IMG/VR virus record: IMGVR_UViG_2698536647_000011
Span: 1-27,882 of that record
DNA from: a virus
Lineage: Duplodnaviria > Heunggongvirae > Uroviricota > Caudoviricetes
Length of the DNA: 27,882 nucleotides
Reading direction: 5' to 3' (one strand)
Shown here: positions 11,041 to 25,800 of the stretch, piece by piece
How positions within the stretch are numbered: position 1 is the first letter of the stretch
Layout: each line of letters starts with the position of its first letter
The notes under the pieces: generated by a model
The model's database searches: none
Told to the model about the DNA's origin: nothing
The model's input: only the letters and a program-made list of their open reading frames with translations
Program-made: the position numbers and the translations under genes

Positions 11041-11070
11041 AAATAAAAAAGCCCCGCACGATGGCGAGGC
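11041..11070 (-). terminator. Intrinsic terminator immediately downstream of Q (first of a tandem pair)
   Basis: On - strand GCCTCGC-CATCGT-GCGGGGC followed by TTTTTTATTT; shares the AAATAAAAAAGCCC core with the 10941 terminator. Confidence 0.55.
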
Positions 11071-11151
11071 TTGGCATTCATTCATGTCACACACAACAAC
11101 GGCAACATATACGATTTATTCTGCTCATTTGTTCATTGAAAAGCAAGCTCG

Positions 11152-11634
11152 TTATGAGGATTTTTTTGCAATTTTCCTCACATTTTCGCGATTGTTAAAC
11201 GCATTTTGCAGCGGTTGGTACAAGCAGAACAGTGAGGCATTGATGATTTGCTTCACCTCTCTACGGATTGTCGAGATGCTTGGGTGTTTATACTGATTTC
11301 CGCCACGCGTCTTCATCAGGCGAGGCTTACTTACTGCATGCTGCCATGATGCAATTCGGATCTCGCTGGAGTTACAAACGTAGTAGGCGAAGACAACCCG
11401 CCAGGCATTTTCATCCACATTCTTCAGATAGTGACGAATGACAGCATCAATGAGCATCCCGTCATCATCACTACATACCGGTCGTGATGCTTGCTGGGGC
11501 TCAACGGTAGCCATGAATCTGGCAATCATGTTGATCATCGCTTTATCAATCTTGCCGGTCTGGCACCATGCGCCCCACAACTGGAGCCACTGGTCTACCC
11601 ATTGATGCTGGTCGTTGGTTAATTCCAGTTTCAT
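11152..11634 (-). CDS. Q: Late-gene antiterminator Q (Q21/QuuD-type family, not lambda-Q type)
   Basis: 160 aa; position between nin genes and lysis cassette; ...WLQLWGAWCQ... and ...SRPVCSDDDGM... resemble what I recall of E. coli QuuD (ERWGAW..., SRPQCCDDDGM); RBS AAGGAAG. Confidence 0.7.
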   Translation of the reverse strand: MKLELTNDQHQWVDQWLQLWGAWCQTGKIDKAMINMIARFMATVEPQQASRPVCSDDDGMLIDAVIRHYLKNVDENAWRVVFAYYVCNSSEIRIASWQHAVSKPRLMKTRGGNQYKHPSISTIRREVKQIINASLFCLYQPLQNAFNNRENVRKIAKKSS

Positions 11635-11746: not shown

Positions 11747-12391
11747 TCATGCGGCCTCCTGTCGGCGTGCCCGGCGTTTTTCCAGCGCGCGGGCTTTGCG
11801 TGTGAAAATGGATTTGATGCGCTGAAGGTATGGGATATCGAACCGGCGCGGCTCGTTATCAGACTCAAGGCGCTCGACACGTTCCTGTCCGATACGCTCA
11901 ACCAGGCGGATCCGGTACTCGACAGCATTCCCACTCAGCTGCCGGTTGCATCGGGTGCAAGCGGAGTGGACGTTAAAAACGTTGAATTTGAGGTGTGATG
12001 CAGCGCCGCGCGAACGGTAATGGCTAGCATCAATGGCGCTGCCAGTCAGGTAATTGCTTTTGCCGATGAGTGGATTGCCGCAGCTGACGCATTCTTTCCC
12101 CTCGTCCCGGATCCGGATGTAGCGGTTAAAGGCCGATTGAGCCTCTTTATCCCACTGGGATTTAGACTTGAGTGACTCGCGCTTTTCTTGTCGGCGTTTG
12201 CGCCCGGCCTTCTCGGCTTCTTTCTGCTCCTTTATGCGCTTAGCAGCGGCTTTCACCTTCTCCTTTTCGCGTTCTTCCATCGCGAGGATTGTGCCGTGCT
12301 CCGGGCAGCACCAGCGGATCCGGATGTCGTGGAATTTCGGCACGAAGTATTCACCGCATACTTTGCACTTACGGCGGGATGGCTTACGCAC
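11747..12391 (-). CDS. ninG: NinG / Rap recombination protein
   Basis: 214 aa; N-terminal Cys cluster (RRKCKVCGEYF...WCCPEHG), Lys/Glu/Arg-rich linker and C-terminal ...SCG...GHY...RCN...RIGQE... match lambda NinG; GTG start with AGGAGG RBS. Confidence 0.85.
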   Translation of the reverse strand: MRKPSRRKCKVCGEYFVPKFHDIRIRWCCPEHGTILAMEEREKEKVKAAAKRIKEQKEAEKAGRKRRQEKRESLKSKSQWDKEAQSAFNRYIRIRDEGKECVSCGNPLIGKSNYLTGSAIDASHYRSRGAASHLKFNVFNVHSACTRCNRQLSGNAVEYRIRLVERIGQERVERLESDNEPRRFDIPYLQRIKSIFTRKARALEKRRARRQEAA

Positions 12392-12554
12392 GTTTCCTCC
12401 TCGCCGCGAGACGCAGCCATTTCTGATCTACCAGGCGGGCGGTGTAGCCTTTCATAGTCGGGATGTCGGAGGGCTTAATCGCGGGCTTGCGCTGGCGGCG
12501 CGCCGGAACGCGGAAGATTTCGTTTGTGATGACGCGGGAAAGTGGAGTAGACAT
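12384..12554 (-). CDS. ninE: NinE-like small protein (56 aa; below the ORF-track cutoff)
   Basis: Hand-translated: MSTPLSRVITNEIFRVPARRQRKPAIKPSDIPTMKGYTARLVDQKWLRLAARRKRA; ATG overlaps NinB stop (TGATG), stop overlaps NinG start; C-terminus resembles lambda NinE (...TAHLWDIRWLR...RARK) from memory. Confidence 0.5.
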   Translation of the reverse strand: MSTPLSRVITNEIFRVPARRQRKPAIKPSDIPTMKGYTARLVDQKWLRLAARRKRA

Positions 12555-13009
12555 CAGTCCTCCTGCTTATCGCGCAGCTGCTGGTACTCGCAGCTCTGCG
12601 GGATGGTCAGGTGGCAGCCGATATTCATCGCCCAGGCTTCGACTTTGCACAGGAATATGTACATCTCGCCGGTTTCCAGCTCCGACGTATGGCGGAGGGA
12701 TTGTACGGTAGTGACCTCCCCGGACACGACGTCTACCCGGTCTTTGCTTTCGTAGCCGAGATAGGTGTGCTTCATCGCGTCTTTGACCCACTCAGGCGTA
12801 GCGAAGGTCTTACCGCGGGCGATGAGGTACTCGCTGATTTCCGTGTACCACATGTGGCTGAGCGCGTTCTGCGACAAGCTGCGCTTCTCGCGCCACGGCT
12901 TAACCTGCAGGCGGAAGCATTGCCCGGCGTCCAGCAATGGCTGAATCTGCTGGCCGATGGCCGCGAAGTTGCCGCGATGGAGCTTGATGCCGTCTACTGG
13001 AAGAGTCAT
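12554..13009 (-). CDS. ninB: NinB-like recombination protein
   Basis: 151 aa; ...REKRSLSQNALSHMWYTEIS... parallels lambda NinB ...ERNRSLDQNRKLWACLGDVS...; AGGAGG RBS; nin-region position. Confidence 0.7.
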   Translation of the reverse strand: MTLPVDGIKLHRGNFAAIGQQIQPLLDAGQCFRLQVKPWREKRSLSQNALSHMWYTEISEYLIARGKTFATPEWVKDAMKHTYLGYESKDRVDVVSGEVTTVQSLRHTSELETGEMYIFLCKVEAWAMNIGCHLTIPQSCEYQQLRDKQED

Positions 13010-13096
13010 ACGGCCTCCTTAACGGAAACCGCAGAATACAGAAAATCGCAGGTGCATTTCTGCATCTGTGACAAGGTGAGAAGTTCATATTGTGGT

Positions 13097-13120
13097 CGCA
13101 TTTAAGTCCCCTTAAATGCG
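13097..13120. repeat. Perfect 10-bp inverted repeat with 4-nt spacer (CGCATTTAAG-tccc-CTTAAATGCG)
   Basis: Read directly; lies in a 200-bp non-coding gap upstream of NinB where lambda carries tR2; no U-tract on either strand. Confidence 0.5.
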
Positions 13121-13212
13121 CAGAAGTCACAATCGGGTGTTCAGGCCGACTGCGACTTAATTATGGCGGGATGATTTGAGAAAATCAATTTGCGAATAGC
13201 GACAATATATAG

Positions 13213-13410
13213 TTAAGGAATCCAGCCTTCGCCGCAATTTCCTGTCTCTCTCATCCACTCATGACCGCATTCCGAGCATTTGTAATAACGCTCGTTTGCT
13301 TCGCGTCCGTGATGGCTGAAGTTAACGGATTTATCGCCTTGCAAGACCATGCATGGAAGAGGCGGGTCCCTTCGTCCAAGGGGTTGTTTGTTACATACTT
13401 CACAAGTCAT
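13213..13410 (-). CDS. Small zinc-ribbon protein (65 aa)
   Basis: Two CxxC pairs (CEVC ... CSEC) typical of a zinc ribbon. Confidence 0.5.
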   Translation of the reverse strand: MTCEVCNKQPLGRRDPPLPCMVLQGDKSVNFSHHGREANERYYKCSECGHEWMRETGNCGEGWIP

Positions 13411-13528: not shown

Positions 13529-13789
13529 TTATTTTTTAGCGTCAAACCCCACATGATGGGACGCAACTTCAGTAAATTTACGAACAACATCCATGGCGAA
13601 ATCACCTCTCTCAGCAATCTTCCAGACCCAATGTACCACCTGCTCTGCGTTCGTTAGGTGGGAAAGAGGAATTGAGTAAACCTGTCCATGGATGTCAATC
13701 ACCTCAAGCTCATCGAGGCACACCTTAACAAGATCATCAAGCTCCCTTTCTCTTTCAAGAATCGTTGTGATGCTCATGCTATTTTCCAT
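13529..13789 (-). CDS. Hypothetical protein (86 aa from internal ATG)
   Basis: AGGAGA RBS 6 nt before ATG at 13789; annotated start at 13816 would overlap the upstream gene. Confidence 0.45.
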   Translation of the reverse strand: MENSMSITTILERERELDDLVKVCLDELEVIDIHGQVYSIPLSHLTNAEQVVHWVWKIAERGDFAMDVVRKFTEVASHHVGFDAKK

Positions 13790-13805: not shown

Positions 13806-14060
13806 TTATTTTGCATTTTGCTCAGTCATTTCAATGTAGCGAGGATCAGATGCCTTAGGCAATGCAACGCTCTGCTCGCGATAGTGCCGCACGCGATCCA
13901 TGAAATACTCTCGTAGATGCTCTGGTTGCTCACGAGCTACCTGCTCGGCGATAACTGGCATGTTTAGGCGTTCTTTGTACGCCACACCAGAAGCAGCAAG
14001 GTCAACGTTCACCTTGTCCTGTTCTTCTTTTGATTTTGCTGCGATGTTATGGCTAGACAT
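13806..14060 (-). CDS. Hypothetical protein (84 aa)
   Basis: ORF with GAGGGGG RBS; charged, helical-looking sequence. Confidence 0.45.
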
Positions 14061-14100
14061 GATGAATCCCCCTCAATGCTTTGAGAAGGATTATACAAAG

Positions 14101-14126
14101 AAAAACCGCCGAAGCGGTTTTGTAGT
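14101..14126 (-). terminator. Bidirectional intrinsic terminator
   Basis: AAAAACCGC-CGAA-GCGGTTTTGTAGTTTT; on - strand ACCGC-UUCG-GCGGU with U-run. Confidence 0.55.
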
Positions 14127-18831: not shown

Positions 18832-19065
18832 TTAGGCCGCAGTATCACGCGGCGATGCGAATACCAGGCTTTCTTTTAGGACCGGAGCCTGGCGGTGAAA
18901 ATTCTTCGTGCCTTTCTCGATAGCAGATGCCATTTCTGGAGATGCCCGGCGATTTCCGTAGGCGATCTGGTCCAGGTAACCTGGCGTCGTGTTAGCCAAC
19001 TTTGCGAGCTGCGCCCATTCGTCGGTAGTGGCGGCCTTGCGCCAGCGGTGTAGTTCAGTGCTCAT
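18832..19065 (-). CDS. Cro-like HTH regulator (YdaS/Cro family)
   Basis: 77 aa with HTH (WAQLAKLANTTPGYLDQIAYGNRRAS); divergent from cI across operator region. Confidence 0.7.
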   Translation of the reverse strand: MSTELHRWRKAATTDEWAQLAKLANTTPGYLDQIAYGNRRASPEMASAIEKGTKNFHRQAPVLKESLVFASPRDTAA

Positions 19066-19089
19066 TGGTGTCTCCGGGTGAGTCGTTTG

Positions 19090-19160
19090 ATTTGGAGTTT
19101 AGCGTTATGCTAAATACTACGCAAGCATCATTTAGCAATTTGCACATTTATCATTTTGCT
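19090..19160. promoter_or_regulatory. Right operator/promoter region (OR, pR/pRM) with TTTAGC-N5-GCTAAA-type operators
   Basis: TTTAGCGTTATGCTAAA (perfect 6-bp arms), TTTAGCAATTTGCACAT, ATCATTTTGCTAAAAGC between divergent cro-like and cI starts. Confidence 0.6.
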
Positions 19161-19181
19161 AAAAGCAGTAACAATGCAGGT

Positions 19182-19859
19182 ATGGAAAATAAAGAAATCA
19201 GAAAAGCCAACCTGGAAGCGCTGTACGAGAAGCGTCAGCACGAGTCTGGAATGACCAAAGCGCAGTTTGCCGAGCTCATCGAGACAAGTCCGGCTGCGCT
19301 TAGCCAGCTACTGGGACCAAACCCTCATCGCAATATCGGCGATAAGATGGCTCGCAAAATTGAAACTGCGCTTGATCTGCCTTTTGGCTGGATGGATGTT
19401 TTACACGCCAGTGAAGAACCTTCGAACGTTGCATTTCGAGGACTGAACGAGACAAAAGGAAGTTATCCTGTAATCAGCTGGGTAAGCGCGGGGCAATGGA
19501 TGGAAGCTGTAGAACCTTATCACCGAAGAGCGATAGATCGCTGGTATGACACGACTGTTGACTGCTCAGAAGATTCATTCTGGCTGGACGTTAAAGGGGA
19601 TTCTATGACCTCCCCGGCTGGACTGAGCATACCCGAGGGAGCAGCGATACTTGTTGATCCTGAAGTCGAGCCGCGCAACGGAAAGCTGGTTGTCGCGAAG
19701 CTAGAAGGCGATAACGAAGCGACCTTTAAGAAGCTTGTAATCGATGCCGGCAGACGCTTCCTAAAGCCCCTTAACCCCGCATATCCAATGCTAGAAATTA
19801 ATGGAAACTGCAAAATCATCGGCGTTGTGGTTGATGCCAAAATACTAAACATCCCATAA
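19182..19859 (+). CDS. cI: CI-type repressor (N-terminal HTH plus C-terminal LexA-like S24 autopeptidase)
   Basis: ...VKGDSMTSPAGLSIPEGAAILVDPEVEPRNGKLVVAKLEGDNEATFKKLVIDAGRRFLKPLNPAYPM... matches lambda CI C-terminal domain; no SD before ATG, consistent with a leaderless pRM transcript. Confidence 0.9.
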   Translation: MENKEIRKANLEALYEKRQHESGMTKAQFAELIETSPAALSQLLGPNPHRNIGDKMARKIETALDLPFGWMDVLHASEEPSNVAFRGLNETKGSYPVISWVSAGQWMEAVEPYHRRAIDRWYDTTVDCSEDSFWLDVKGDSMTSPAGLSIPEGAAILVDPEVEPRNGKLVVAKLEGDNEATFKKLVIDAGRRFLKPLNPAYPMLEINGNCKIIGVVVDAKILNIP

Positions 19860-19877
19860 CCTCACGCAAAACCCCTC

Positions 19878-19903
19878 AAGCCCGCCATCGCGCGGGCTTT
19901 TTT
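19878..19903 (+). terminator. Intrinsic terminator downstream of cI
   Basis: AAGCCCGC-CATC-GCGGGCTT followed by TTTTT. Confidence 0.6.
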
Positions 19904-19942
19904 ACGTCCCGAATTCCTTCGCTGTAAATTTTTAATCGCTTA

Positions 19943-20017
19943 TTAATCAATACGCTAAATAAAACCATTCAACAATTTAGCATTTTGCTATTGCGCATAA
20001 TTTAGCATCACGCTAAA
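19943..20017. promoter_or_regulatory. Left operator/promoter region (OL, pL) with three TTTAGC-N5-GCTAAA-type operators
   Basis: TTAATCAATACGCTAAA, TTTAGCATTTTGCTATT, TTTAGCATCACGCTAAA; same half-site as OR. Confidence 0.6.
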
Positions 20018-20029
20018 TTTATCCCATCG

Positions 20030-20753
20030 AAACGAAACATCGACAGCTGAGCGAAGTTAGCCAGCGGCGGACAGCAAGTCGCCTGCTTTTTAACAACATG
20101 CAGATTTACAGCGTCAATGACCTGTTAAGACCCCTACACGAAAACGTGCTGTATCACCGGGTGCGATCCGGTCGGTGAGAGAGTATCCCCGCGCGAGAGC
20201 GATAACGGCGTGAGAACGGGCAACACTGGCAGGGAGTTGGCGCTTAATGAACAAATCTTAGCTGCCCGGCTGGCAACCTACTGCCAATAACACAGCTTTC
20301 CCCGTATGAGAGGCTAACTGCGGGGCGCGGACTCGACGCGTAGTACAGGTGTAACCCGCAACACGAAGTTCGAGTGGCGTCCGTCTGGTAAGTGGCTACG
20401 GCCTGCAACTGGATGAAACGCCAAGGGTGACAGCCGGAGAGACGGCTCACAACGAAAAGAGCGCTGGCATGCAAAAAATAATCTCGCAGCCATTGCAGTA
20501 CCAAAAGCCAGGATGGAATGGCAAAACGCGGTAGTGCTCTTTTCGTTGTGGCGAAGTGCTTTGGGGTGAAGCGGCGTGGGAAATCGGTGACACGCAAAGT
20601 GGCGAACCGTACACACTGAATCACGGGGTTGGGTAGCAAGGTGGCCCACGGAAGCGCGAACGAGCGGACCGGAACACATCGCCGGGGTAACGTCCGGCCT
20701 TCACCACCAAAGCATTTCTCCCGCATCTGCGGGTAACGATAGAGGGTAAGGGG
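20030..20753 (+). ncRNA. Candidate long structured leader/ncRNA downstream of pL (no + strand ORF of 60 codons or more)
   Basis: About 700 bp, GC-rich; hand-checked ATG ORFs are all 27 codons or fewer; many short GNRA/GAAA-type hairpins; early hairpin GGCGGAC-AGCAA-GTCGCC then TGCTTTTT at about 20063-20091. Confidence 0.25.
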
Positions 20754-22708: not shown

Positions 22709-22848
22709 GCGAAAGCCCACCGAAGTGGGCCCGCCATGTCCGGCCTCACCGACCAAAGTTACACCGGAAACAACATTAAAACCAAAGTTAACCCAATGGG
22801 CGCTATCAATGGTCCGGGGATTCTAACACCCAAAAAAGAGGATCTCAC

Positions 22849-25800
22849 ATGGAATTTCCATATGTAGTTAAAGCCACGCAAAAGTCGGGAAAGCCTGATG
22901 CTTTTGTCTGGTTCACTGCAAAAACAGAGGCTCGCGCCAATCTGATGCTGGATGTTGCGCTGGAAGATGCAGGTATCGAAACAGGTAGGGGTAAGGACTA
23001 CGCCAAACCGATTCGCACTGATTTCCCAGTTGTCGACGGCCTGCCGAAAGAAGGTGAAGTTGATTTTACCTGGTGTGATCGCTACGAGCTTCAGGACGAT
23101 GGGCGCACCTGGCTGCCAAAAGCCGCTGGTGTGTCTACTGGTTCCGTTGACGCCCCCTACACACCTACTCCGACCGTAATCGTTGAAGATGCGACTGCGT
23201 CCGAAATTGTCCCGGTTGAAATCCGTACTCCAGCGGTCCGCTTTGCCGTCCATCTGATGAACGATAAATACCAAACCCACGTCACTAAAGAGCAGCAGTT
23301 GGCTGCCAGCGAAATGTCACTGGATGAAGGCAATACATATCTCCATAGCCTGCTTGTGGCAAGGAACGATGTGCCCGCGACCGCCAAACTCAGCCTGAAT
23401 GCTGAGTGGAAAATGATTCGGGCGGTTAAGGACATTTTCACACCAGACGAAGAGCACGAACCAAGATTGATCGCTGCATTCATGTCTGACTGGGTGAACA
23501 CGGATGCCGGTGACCGCAATCAACTGATAGAAGACTGGCGCAGTGGTAAGTTGCAGTTGCTCAAAACTGAAACCAGCAGCGGTGCTAACGTTACAACGGG
23601 TCAAGATCTCACTGTTGAGGACGGCATCCAGGCCGACGAGCACGGCCGGGCAGAAGGTGGCGTCGTTGATAGTGAAGTCGATACCGAAGAGCAATCCCAG
23701 CAGATACAGCAACCGAACCTGATCGTTGTTGCCACCCTGCCTTTCCGCCAGCGCGTACTGGCTCAGTTCATCGGTGATGGTGAATATCTCTATCACATCG
23801 ACGCAGGGCAGAAAAATGAGATTGTCCGCCTTGAGATGGACACCGATGACGCGTACGTCCAGAACCTGCTGCTGGCAGCTGAGAATGTGGAAGCATTCAA
23901 AAAAGCCATTGAGCACGATATTCATAAAGTCGTGAATGCCGTTAAGAAAGTCTTCCCTGTCGATGGAAAAATCCCTGAACTCGCAACCTTAATCCAGTTT
24001 TTGAAATTGTGGTTCGCTACAGATCACATCGACCGCGGTATCCTCATTCGCGAATGGGCCGCCGGTAATCGCATCAGTAGTGTGCAGCGTACTGATTCCG
24101 GCACTAATGCCGACGGCGGTTACGTCACTGACCGTGGACCTGACGCACACCACACACTGGACACTCTCGATTTAGAGATTGCGTGTGCCCTTCTGCCTAT
24201 GGACTTCAACCACTTCGAGATCCCGGGCAGCATTCTTCGTCGCGCTAAAGAAATCGTGACCAAAAAAGAAGAACCATGGAAATCATGGAGCAACATCCTG
24301 CGCAATCAGCCAGGCGTTCTGGGTGTTAACCGCACGGCTATTTTTAACCTGGTACGTATCGCACCGGAAAATATTCATTTAACTCCTGTCGCTCACCTGG
24401 AATTTGTTAACCAGACCATGACAGCCGCGTTCAATTCCGCGGTCGAGTTATTGCCGTTGCATGAGGCTGAACCCGCAGCACAGGAAATTCCCCAACCTGA
24501 AGGTAAGGAGTCTCCGCGCAAATCCTTCTGCACTCACGAAGAGAACCTGCAACGCGTGCGTGAAGAAGGAGCACGCCGCCGCGCAGAGGAAGCGGCAGCA
24601 CAACCGCAGAAAGTCGAACAAGAACTGGTTAAAAATGTCGGCAACGGAATATTCGACGTTACGGCTTTGCTGCAGAACTCAGCAACTCATGGCACGAAAA
24701 AGGCTACGGAGACCACCAGCAATGTGCAGGTTCAAGAAACTGTCAGTGATGAAAAACAAGCTGGTGATGAAGTACAGCCAGGCGAAAGCAGTCTGGAGTC
24801 TGGTGAAGAGTCAGATACCAGCCAGAAGGACGATGTAGACCAGAATACGGATTCTGTCGCCAAAAATAGCGATTCTGTAAGCCAAACCGAACCAGTTGCA
24901 GCACAAACCGAGCCAGAAGCGCAATCTGACGAACCAGCTGTTGTTTATCCCGCTTATTTCGAGCCAGGCCGCTATGAAGGGCTGCCAAACGAGGTTTACC
25001 ACGCCGCCAACGGCATCAGCTCAACCCAGGTGAAAGATGCGCGCGTTTCGCTGATGTACTTCAATGCGCGCCACGTAGAGAAAACCATCGTCAAAGAGCG
25101 CTCAGCGGTGCTGGACATGGGCAACTTGGTGCATGCGCTGGCGTTGCAGCCTGAACTACTGGACGCAGAATTCAGCGTTGAACCGGTGATCCCTGAAGGC
25201 GCATTCACAACGGCCGCGACCCTGCGCGCCTTTATCGATGAGCACAATGCCAGCCTGCCGGCGCTGCTGTCTGCCGACGACATCAAGGTGTTACTGGAAG
25301 AGTACAACGCCACCCTGCCGCCGCAGGTTCCGCTTGGCGCTAACCTGGAAGAAACGGCACAGAACTATATGGCGCTGCCAGCTGACTTCCAGCGTATTGA
25401 TGGTGACCAGAAGCAGACGGCGACGGCAATGAAGGCATGCATTAAAGAGTACAACGCCACCCTGCCGCCGCCGGTTAAAACCAGCGGCAGCCGTGACGCG
25501 CTGCTGGAGCAGTTGGCAATCATCAACCCTGACCTTGTGGCTCAGGAAGCACAGAAACCGGCACCACTGAAAGTGTCCGGTACCAAAGCAGACATGATCC
25601 AGGCCGTGAAGGCAGTCAAACCAGATGCCGTATTTGCCGACGAACTGCTGGATGCCTGGCGCGATAACCCGGAAGGAAAAGTGCTGGTCACCCGCCAGCA
25701 GCTGAGCACCGCGCTGAATATTCAAAAAGCGCTTCTGGCACACCCGACCGCCGGCATGCTGCTGACCCACCCTAGCCGAGCCGTTGAGGTGAGCTACTTT

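Follow-up and report, generated by a model that had tools for sequence, protein, structure and literature searches.

The perfect 10-bp inverted repeat that lies upstream of ninB in this viral sequence is a conserved RNA hairpin (HP2); it is not a terminator, and it is unlikely to be a DNA operator. We consider it probable that, within a four-hairpin leader equipped with its own promoter, HP2 serves as a gate that sequesters the ribosome-binding site of a short leader ORF coupled to the expression of ninB. This model builds on the hairpin itself and the strand on which it forms, on covariation among relatives, on the geometry of the ORF, and on the promoter and the four-hairpin architecture, each of which is laid out below.

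In the window (i.e., the whole 27,882-nt stretch of DNA that was analyzed), positions 13097–13120 read CGCATTTAAG tccc CTTAAATGCG on the plus strand, and direct reading of the sequence confirms what the first-pass annotation had reported: a perfect 10-bp inverted repeat with a 4-nt spacer. This is the sole perfect inverted repeat of at least 10 bp with a 3- to 8-nt loop in the 27.9-kb window. Dinucleotide shuffles produce 0.2 such repeats per window, and since 15% of the shuffled windows contain at least one, the repeat taken alone is not significant: It is structural conservation, and not the sequence of the repeat alone, that puts it beyond chance. Because the genes around the repeat are all on the minus strand, the relevant sequence is the reverse complement of the repeat, 5'-CGCAUUUAAG-GGGA-CUUAAAUGCG-3'. 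The first-pass annotation had thus placed the repeat correctly with respect to NinB but not on the relevant strand, ninB being a minus-strand gene (13009..12554), and the gap of about 200 bp that it took to be non-coding holds a 31-codon ORF (13101..13006), a predicted promoter and three further hairpins (Table 1). Its remark that the repeat has no U-tract and is not a canonical intrinsic terminator stands: Neither side has a run of U or T (3' of the repeat, the minus strand continues as ACCACAAU and the plus strand as CAGAAGUC), and the repeat is not among the calls of the terminator scan.

Table 1. Features of the ninB leader and its surroundings, listed in the direction of the minus strand (window coordinates).
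Feature	Position	Strand	Basis or remark
65-aa zinc-ribbon-like ORF, upstream of leader	13410..13213	-	
Predicted leader promoter, -35 hexamer TTGATT	13183..13188	-	promoter scan, TTGATT-17-CATAAT
Palindrome of TTGAT-N8-ATCAA type, over -35 and spacer	13171..13188	.	one mismatch in window
Predicted leader promoter, -10 hexamer CATAAT	13160..13165	-	promoter scan; phage 82 annotation
HP1, 11-bp hairpin GUCGCAGUCGG / CCGAUUGUGAC with conserved 9-nt loop CCUGAACAC	13126..13156	-	fold -12.8 kcal/mol
Linker UUCUG between HP1 and HP2, pyrimidine-rich	13121..13125	-	matches mapped RNA 3' end in K-12 DLP12 homologue
HP2, the reported repeat, CGCAUUUAAG-GGGA-CUUAAAUGCG	13097..13120	-	fold -13.3 kcal/mol, z = -6.7
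Leader ORF of ylcH/orf33 type, 31 codons (MRPQYELLTLSQMQKCTCDFLYSAVSVKEAV)	13006..13101	-	stop UGA overlaps ninB AUG as AUGA
HP3, UCACAGAUGCA-GAAA-UGCACCUGCGA, two conserved A-C mismatches, then UUUUCUGUAUU	13035..13071 (hairpin 13071-13046, U-rich tail)	-	inside leader ORF
HP4, UGCGGUUUCC-GUUAA-GGAGGCCGUA, pairs ninB Shine-Dalgarno AAGGAGG (13014-13020) and reaches ninB AUG	13009..13033	-	fold -15.8 kcal/mol, z = -4.2
ninB/ybcN, Orf-family recombination mediator, gene served by leader	12554..13009	-	NCBIfam PRK09741 3e-79, weak Pfam NinB match
NinG gene	12391..11747	-	
Q-like gene	11634..11152	-	

Four hairpins form on the minus strand when a 161-nt segment (about 13155 to 12995) is folded (z = -4.5), and HP2 is the second of them. 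Its loop presents a Shine-Dalgarno sequence in a GNRA-type tetraloop, GGGA, which together with the closing G reads AAGGGGA, and its 3' arm carries the AUG (13101–13099) of the 31-codon leader ORF. Conservation in related phages, which the first-pass annotation had proposed as a check, is complete with respect to this geometry: A GGGGA-like Shine-Dalgarno sequence in the loop and an ATG or GTG in the 3' arm recur in 180 of 180 distinct homologous leaders. These were drawn from 118 loci gathered via NinB and 120 gathered via the HP3 pattern, and 142 of the leaders were used to build a covariance model of 183 positions. The model finds a single copy of the leader in the window (12991–13175, minus strand) and 98 further copies in 99 related loci, two of which contain the leader twice. 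In the resulting alignment, 86% of cells pair in the standard way, as compared to 31–45% when partners are slid, and changes on both sides occur in 29 of 39 pairs; none of 500 shuffles reached the observed values.

Because an alignment made with a covariance model is fitted to that model, and so leans towards structure, we relied on two other checks, namely RNAalifold applied to MAFFT alignments and the folding of single variants. Double compensatory changes are seen in 9 of the 10 HP2 pairs in the covariance-model alignment of 99 homologous leaders, and when 14 distinct HP2 variants are simply aligned with MAFFT, RNAalifold again predicts the upper stem, each of its six pairs being compensated. 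There are at least 14 different HP2 stem sequences, and all 14 of those folded singly give hairpins of -12.9 to -17.3 kcal/mol with a loop of 4–6 nt. Since MAFFT alone misaligns several HP2 variants, the covariance-model alignment was used along with the per-variant folds. The HP2 block of the covariance-model alignment has its own distortion, in that it misregisters the bulged variants of the DLP12 type (47 A-C vs. 24 G-U cells); in HP1, HP3 and HP4, G-U cells outnumber A-C cells. Each of the four hairpins covaries as an independent stem, and covariation that preserves structure across relatives excludes a chance palindrome.

The same variants reveal the level at which selection operates. G-U pairs, which are A-C mismatches on the opposite strand, occur in 10 of the 14 HP2 stems, and the ninB-sense strand is more stable than the antisense strand in every variant (14 of 14, by 4.2 kcal/mol on average). 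It follows that selection acts on the minus-strand RNA and not on a DNA palindrome, and that the compensatory substitutions maintain HP2 pairing in the mRNA. The first-pass suggestion of a binding site for a dimeric protein, if on the DNA, is not supported by these observations, in that the half-sites vary while the pairing is kept. The elements of HP2 that do not vary freely are its G-C-rich base and its loop, which is GGGA in 12 of the 14 variants; so strict a loop could mean that a protein recognizes it or that it makes a tertiary contact, and need not reflect the Shine-Dalgarno sequence alone. We also considered an RNA thermometer, for which stems of -13 to -17 kcal/mol seem too stable.

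The features of the ORF that begins within HP2 are highly constrained. Among the 180 distinct leaders, the start codon is ATG in 170 and GTG in 10, and the distance from the Shine-Dalgarno sequence to the start is always 3–8 nt (5 nt in 137 leaders). The ORF is 29–34 codons long in all but one leader and 31–33 codons long in nearly all, indels between leader subtypes keep the reading frame, and the stop codon overlaps the start of the next gene in 178 leaders (as ATGA in 136 and GTGA in 42). The peptide, by comparison, is poorly conserved and varies where HP3 undergoes compensatory change (e.g., QMQKCTC, QMLKSTC and PMAKVTG). Because frame and length are kept while the peptide varies with HP3, the pattern is, judged from sequence, what one expects of an ORF that is kept for the act of being translated and not for its product. 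The ORF belongs to the ylcH/orf33 family, whose members have about 31–33 codons, overlap ybcN or ninB and share the core SQMQKCTC; its peptide is 59% identical to K-12 YlcH over 17 residues, and no Pfam or NCBIfam model covers it.

Downstream of the start codon, the ORF runs through the two remaining hairpins. HP3 is paired in 98.5% of cells, with compensatory changes in four pairs, and a terminator-like match in the terminator scan overlaps it. Of the pairings that were considered for this region, the variants support only the UGCA-GAAA-UGCA stem, and neither the RNAfold pairing of GAAA with the U tract nor the 5-bp option of the terminator scan is retained. HP3 is best described as a terminator-like hairpin at which transcription may terminate; in K-12, the Term-seq tables show no 3' end within ylcH, hence none at HP3. 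HP4 displays compensatory changes in six pairs and 218 G-U vs. 49 A-C cells. The gene that follows the leader is a member of the NinB family, either of the YbcN type or of the classical Orf type, in every intact leader-bearing locus examined. These two types of NinB proteins are only 16% identical (PMC4118853), and the leader subtypes are reshuffled relative to them; for this reason, autoregulation by NinB was judged unlikely, even though the next gene is always of this family.

The leader would be transcribed from a promoter of its own. A sigma-70-like promoter, TTGATT-17-CATAAT, is predicted at 13188–13160, and a transcription start near 13153 can be tentatively placed, only by spacing. In 149 of 169 distinct upstream contexts, we find TTGAYT or TTGCTT, an invariant 17-bp spacer and NATAAT, and the remainder have an extended -10 element, TGnTATAAT. 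A TTGAT-N8-ATCAA palindrome accompanies 126 of the 149 promoter contexts, and its counterpart at 13171–13188 is a possible candidate operator. Its half-sites match those of FNR, whose consensus consists of TTGAT and ATCAA at N4 spacing, but the N8 spacing led us to reject an FNR site. In 41 of 152 related contexts, the leader promoter is preceded by a canonical terminator, which ends 9–19 nt before the -35 hexamer.

HP1, the first hairpin of the leader, has compensatory changes in 9 of 10 modelled pairs (105 G-U vs. 36 A-C cells) and a loop whose consensus across leaders is YYUGARCAN, and it is present as two or three tandem copies in three of the related loci (L018, L025 and L032). Because the outer pairs of HP1 precede the predicted start site, part of the selection on it may act on transcripts that read through from pR. 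No intramolecular partner of the HP1 loop was found on inspection of the leader alignment, and no complement to it in the window. The linker that separates HP1 from HP2 is short and pyrimidine-rich in every leader subtype.

Parts of this element have been noted before. The leader region matches phi80, HK225, HK639, CobraSix and other phages, and megablast detects the leader in 1,201 of 5,426 complete E. coli genomes, O157:H7 strains among them. The phi80 record (JX871397.1) contains the same element and gives this very repeat the name IR4. A record from the 1990s for phage 82 (X92588.1) likewise contains the element and annotates a putative -35, a -10, an RBS, orf33 and orf151; it attaches the label 'possible regulator-binding site' to the HP1 repeat and leaves HP2 unmarked. 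The small leader ORF is annotated in HK225 (HK225_060), in phage 82 (orf33), in K-12 (ylcH) and by PGAP. The phi80, phage 82, HK225 and K-12 records assign no function or RNA structure, and HP3, HP4 and the covariation are annotated in none of the records examined. A literature search on ylcH, ybcN and ninB with sRNAs and small proteins returned no functional study; the element is partly annotated already, and a functional or structural description was not found in the literature.

Evidence on expression comes from the DLP12 homologue in K-12. According to Term-seq data (PMC7815308, supplementary files 1 and 3), an RNA 3' end maps, in two growth conditions and at low counts (about 1,600–1,900 reads), to MG1655 572349/572350 (+). 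The RNA ends ...CUCCGGUGACUUCUG-3', 19 nt before the ylcH AUG; the end is 5–6 nt past HP1 and immediately ahead of HP2. Term-seq does not separate termination, pausing, cleavage and exonuclease trimming from one another. The ylcH RNA has also been scored as a unit of its own, up under microaerobiosis and with no known regulator (PMC8910356). Adequate expression of DLP12 rusA, which lies downstream of ybcN, requires a promoter supplied by an insertion (PMC4118853), a requirement compatible with a leader whose default state is off.

Under the model that we favor, initiation on the leader ORF would be repressed by HP2, which buries its AUG in a stem of -13 kcal/mol, and would be low by default. 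A ribosome that did initiate would read through HP3, with its terminator-like form and U-rich tail, and then through HP4, in which the ninB Shine-Dalgarno sequence is paired, and would halt at the UGA overlapping the ninB AUG, such that translation of ninB would be both unmasked and coupled to that of the leader. Another possible effect of translating the leader ORF is relief of termination or polarity at HP3. In this scheme, the entrance of the nin-Q operon would hold a translation-coupled attenuator, with HP2 as its gate. Because the Shine-Dalgarno sequence of ninB is itself strong, the coupling may be partial. Candidates for the signal that would open the gate are a factor acting on HP1, a factor acting on the promoter palindrome, and cleavage of the linker between HP1 and HP2.

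An element of this kind would work both like hairpins that occlude a ribosome-binding site and like leader-ORF attenuators. Close parallels among the latter are the pyrBI and trp leaders, in which a short ORF of conserved length and variable sequence runs through a terminator-like hairpin to the start of the structural gene, much as the leader ORF extends across HP3 and HP4 into the start of the next gene. Unlike these leaders, the ninB leader has the additional hairpins HP1 and HP2, its four stems are independent, and we found no mutually exclusive antiterminator pairing within it and no repeated regulatory codon in its peptide. Promoter-proximal hairpins are also a feature of other lambdoid early transcripts, namely those containing lambda nut boxB and the put RNAs of HK022 and HK639. 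The HP1 loop, CCUGAACAA, agrees in 8 of 9 letters with lambda boxB, whose sequence is CCCUGAAAAA, but the stem register differs, the loop is of 9 nt, and the version in the window is without the closing A. A lambda-type nut site consists of boxA and then boxB, a hairpin in which a U-A pair on a 5-bp stem closes a GNRNA pentaloop; there is no boxA match near HP1, and the leader occurs in phages with different N proteins or with none. We rejected a put-like RNA, in that the putL-like RNA of HK639 has no visible sequence resemblance to the leader of the same genome.

Several other explanations for HP2 must be considered. A protein could be the actual switch, with the HP2 RNA as the site of a repressor or an activator (a phage early, nin-region or host RNA-binding protein). 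It would then be a protein-bound translational operator like those for MS2 coat protein and for T4 gp32, gp43 and RegA, and HP2 resembles the MS2 replicase operator and the T4 gene 32 and regA targets in having a start codon in the stem, a Shine-Dalgarno sequence at or near the loop, and a stability that is conserved over sequence; it differs from them in controlling a short leader ORF and not the main gene directly, and no protein is known to bind it. The conserved GGGA tetraloop and G-C-rich stem base would fit a protein site, and HP1, with its conserved loop and tandem copies directly alongside, resembles a protein-binding array; moreover, the gene served always encodes a NinB/Orf-family ssDNA-binding protein (PMC4118853), a class known for mRNA-binding autoregulation. 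However, the stem below the loop varies freely over 14 variants, leaving little sequence to recognize besides the Shine-Dalgarno sequence, specific autoregulation would be hard to maintain with leader subtypes shuffled against NinB subtypes that share 16% identity (PMC4118853), and there is no identified candidate protein; we regard this explanation as rather unlikely. A role in RNA processing or stability, to which we assign a low probability, supposes cleavage or termination in the UUCUG linker, after which HP2 would be a 5'-terminal stem-loop stabilizing the ninB mRNA and HP1 would protect the upstream fragment. The first-pass annotation had offered an RNA processing element as its second idea, and of its two ideas the one invoking RNA has fared better. 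In favor of processing, both K-12 conditions place the end of the RNA 5–6 nt past HP1, right where the homologous HP2 begins, and the linker retains its short, pyrimidine-rich character in all subtypes. Against it, the Term-seq counts are low (about 1,600–1,900) and their source cannot be told apart among termination, pausing, cleavage and trimming. In the main leader subtype, the HP2 stem is followed by ACCA, as hairpins are in RNase P model substrates, but we rejected an RNase P-like substrate since ACCA is not conserved in the other subtypes. Processing also offers no account of the conservation of the ORF or of the constant presence of the AUG and Shine-Dalgarno sequence within HP2; processing and the gate model can both hold, and the one does not exclude the other.

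The remaining alternatives are less easily reconciled with the data. That the promoter yields a short trans-acting RNA (HP1 alone or HP1 through HP3), operating via the U-turn-like loop of HP1 and retaining HP2 as a structural module, is very unlikely, despite the conserved promoter, the short K-12 RNA that ends after HP1, and a YUNR motif in the HP1 loop, which is typical of antisense recognition loops; IsrK of Gifsy-1, a dual sRNA/mRNA, would be a precedent. No complementary target was found in the window, no Rfam family corresponds to the leader, and the conserved ORF with its ATGA coupling points to a role in cis; furthermore, because the mapped K-12 RNA ends before HP2, HP2 would not belong to the short RNA. 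A DNA operator at which a dimeric P22-type repressor blocks transcription into ninB is highly improbable. The idea is based on a sequence match: The core of the repeat, ATTTAAG-N4-CTTAAAT, contains both P22 c2 half-sites at the correct 4-bp spacing and without a mismatch to ATTTAAGNNNNCTTAAAT, and any one palindromic half-site would be this heptamer by chance with a probability of about 6e-5. The operator consensus is ATTTAAGATATCTTAAAT (PMC5175364). Against such an operator, the site is single and isolated: Nothing else resembling an operator turned up in the window, the surroundings of the repressor and cro genes included; the only other match in a search of the window is at 13788 with three mismatches, and the number of matches is at the level expected by chance. 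The immunity region in the window is of the HK225/phi80 type, of the stem variants, which number at least 14 and all retain pairing, a single one has the P22 half-site, and the G-U pairs and the greater stability of the sense strand mark selection at the level of RNA. The central 4 bp are, in addition, G/C-rich, which lowers the affinity of P22 repressor. We therefore rejected the P22-type operator: The consensus is matched, but at a lone site whose half-site is lost in relatives and at which selection is strand-specific. Least probable of all is that the repeat is an atypical terminator equivalent to lambda tR2, or a palindrome of no function. The first-pass annotation was right that the map position is that of tR2 (before the first nin gene of the early-right operon, between ren and ninB), and a 10-bp perfect repeat is present in 15% of shuffled windows; but the equivalence to tR2 fails. 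In lambda, this position is taken by a canonical terminator of another kind: tR2 is a G+C-rich hairpin with TTTTTATTT after it and directly precedes the ninB Shine-Dalgarno sequence, whereas HP2 has no U tract, contains the Shine-Dalgarno sequence and start codon within the hairpin, and sits downstream of its own promoter. The lambda genome lacks the leader, yielding no match with the covariance model. Because tR2-like terminators, where present in relatives, lie upstream of the leader promoter, the repeat is not their analogue, and no tR2 homology or replacement is seen; chance, for its part, is excluded by covariation that preserves the structure.

The gate model bears on how a wider set of genes may be controlled, since the leader sits at the entrance of an operon that ends in the late-gene antiterminator Q. 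If HP2 does function as a gate, it could time late gene expression in lambdoid phages without N/nut control of the lambda type, and a translation-gated leader that has its own promoter and is off by default would explain the silence of genes such as rusA in DLP12 without an insertion-supplied promoter. A bolder proposal, which we hold to be doubtful, is that the ninB leader is an undescribed riboregulatory switch, i.e., an N-independent checkpoint for the expression of nin-Q and hence of the late genes, the gate of which would be opened by a factor on the HP1 loop (boxB-like or U-turn) or on the promoter palindrome. Were this true, it would apply to lambdoid phages and prophages such as phi80, 82, HK225, HK639 and many prophages of E. 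coli.

For annotation, what appears before ninB as a 'non-coding gap with palindrome' turns out to be a structured leader that includes a small ORF with the look of a translated one. Rfam 15 has no match at 13000–13200, even at E-values of up to 5, and the covariance model derived from 142 sequences could seed an RNA family. The sole Rfam match in the window above its gathering score is isrB-like and lies elsewhere than the leader.

The core of the inverted repeat that forms HP2, the second of the four leader hairpins, matches the P22 c2 repressor operator consensus (ATTTAAG-N4-CTTAAAT) perfectly in both half-sites. Despite this match, the immunity region of the window is not P22-like; in a polylysogen, a P22-type repressor would be a candidate for cross-binding the repeat core.

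HP1, the promoter-proximal hairpin, carries a loop whose consensus across homologues is YYUGARCAN, the window's own version being CCUGAACAC. Within this loop lies a YUNR motif, that is, a U-turn motif, and the loop is similar to that of lambda boxB (CCCUGAAAAA). Some leaders of relatives (L018, L025 and L032) contain two or three HP1-like hairpins in tandem. The hairpin is labelled a 'possible regulator-binding site' in the database record of phage 82 (X92588.1), and in K-12 an RNA 3' end has been mapped 5-6 nt downstream of it (PMC7815308).

The leader promoter is overlapped by a palindrome of the TTGAT-N8-ATCAA type, which was found in 126 of 149 promoter contexts. Its half-sites are identical to those of FNR, but an FNR site has a spacing of N4 rather than N8. 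The ylcH RNA of K-12 is reported to be up under microaerobiosis (PMC8910356).

Coordinates of leader elements and other features (window positions unless a contig is named)
Feature	Position	Strand	Remark
P22-type operator match	13100-13117		core of the repeat
HP1	13126-13156	(-)	conserved 9-nt loop on freely covarying stem
TTGAT-N8-ATCAA type palindrome	13171-13188		overlaps -35 and spacer of leader promoter
Leader copies, contig L155	2261-2447 and 4572-4759
Leader copies, contig L156	12908-13092 and 10498-10686
isrJ-like match	11048-11120	(-)	28.3 bits, under gathering score
isrB-like match	22710-22807	(-)	38.2 bits, above 35-bit gathering threshold
Intrinsic terminator	~14098-14125	(-)	AAAACCGCUUCGGCGGUUUUUCUUU
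TATAAT-like hexamer, SD-pairing hairpin	within 14060-14097	(-)	3' of terminator
Stretch right of repressor gene	~19860-20750	plus	~900 bp

Two phage contigs (L155 and L156) each hold two leader copies in the same orientation, about 2.3 kb apart. The first copy in L155 is truncated after the terminator-like HP3, and an inserted cassette whose ORFs are unrelated comes next, an arrangement that looks like the insertion of a moron into the leader accompanied by duplication. In one relative, L082 (IMGVR_UViG_2663762836_000006), unrelated sequence stands in place of the promoter and of HP1's 5' half, yet HP2-HP4 are intact; this locus is a natural promoter-less leader variant.

The early-right strand has a canonical intrinsic terminator roughly 1 kb upstream of the leader. 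Behind it come a TATAAT-like hexamer and a hairpin in which the SD (GAGGGGGA) of an ORF starting at 14060 is paired. The pattern in which a terminator precedes a promoter-like site and an SD hairpin recurs here, and weak isrK and rsmX Rfam matches fall in the same region. The weak isrJ-like Rfam match sits immediately 3' of the Q-like gene, a position that would suit a pR'-type leader RNA. Over the tabulated stretch on the right-hand side of the repressor gene (19065..19859), the plus strand, which we infer to be the early-left strand, lacks a convincing ORF, and the stretch gave no meaningful Rfam match; the left operon might have a long leader or a non-coding region here. The isrB-like Rfam match adjoins the large, RecE-like exonuclease gene where that gene starts, at 22849.
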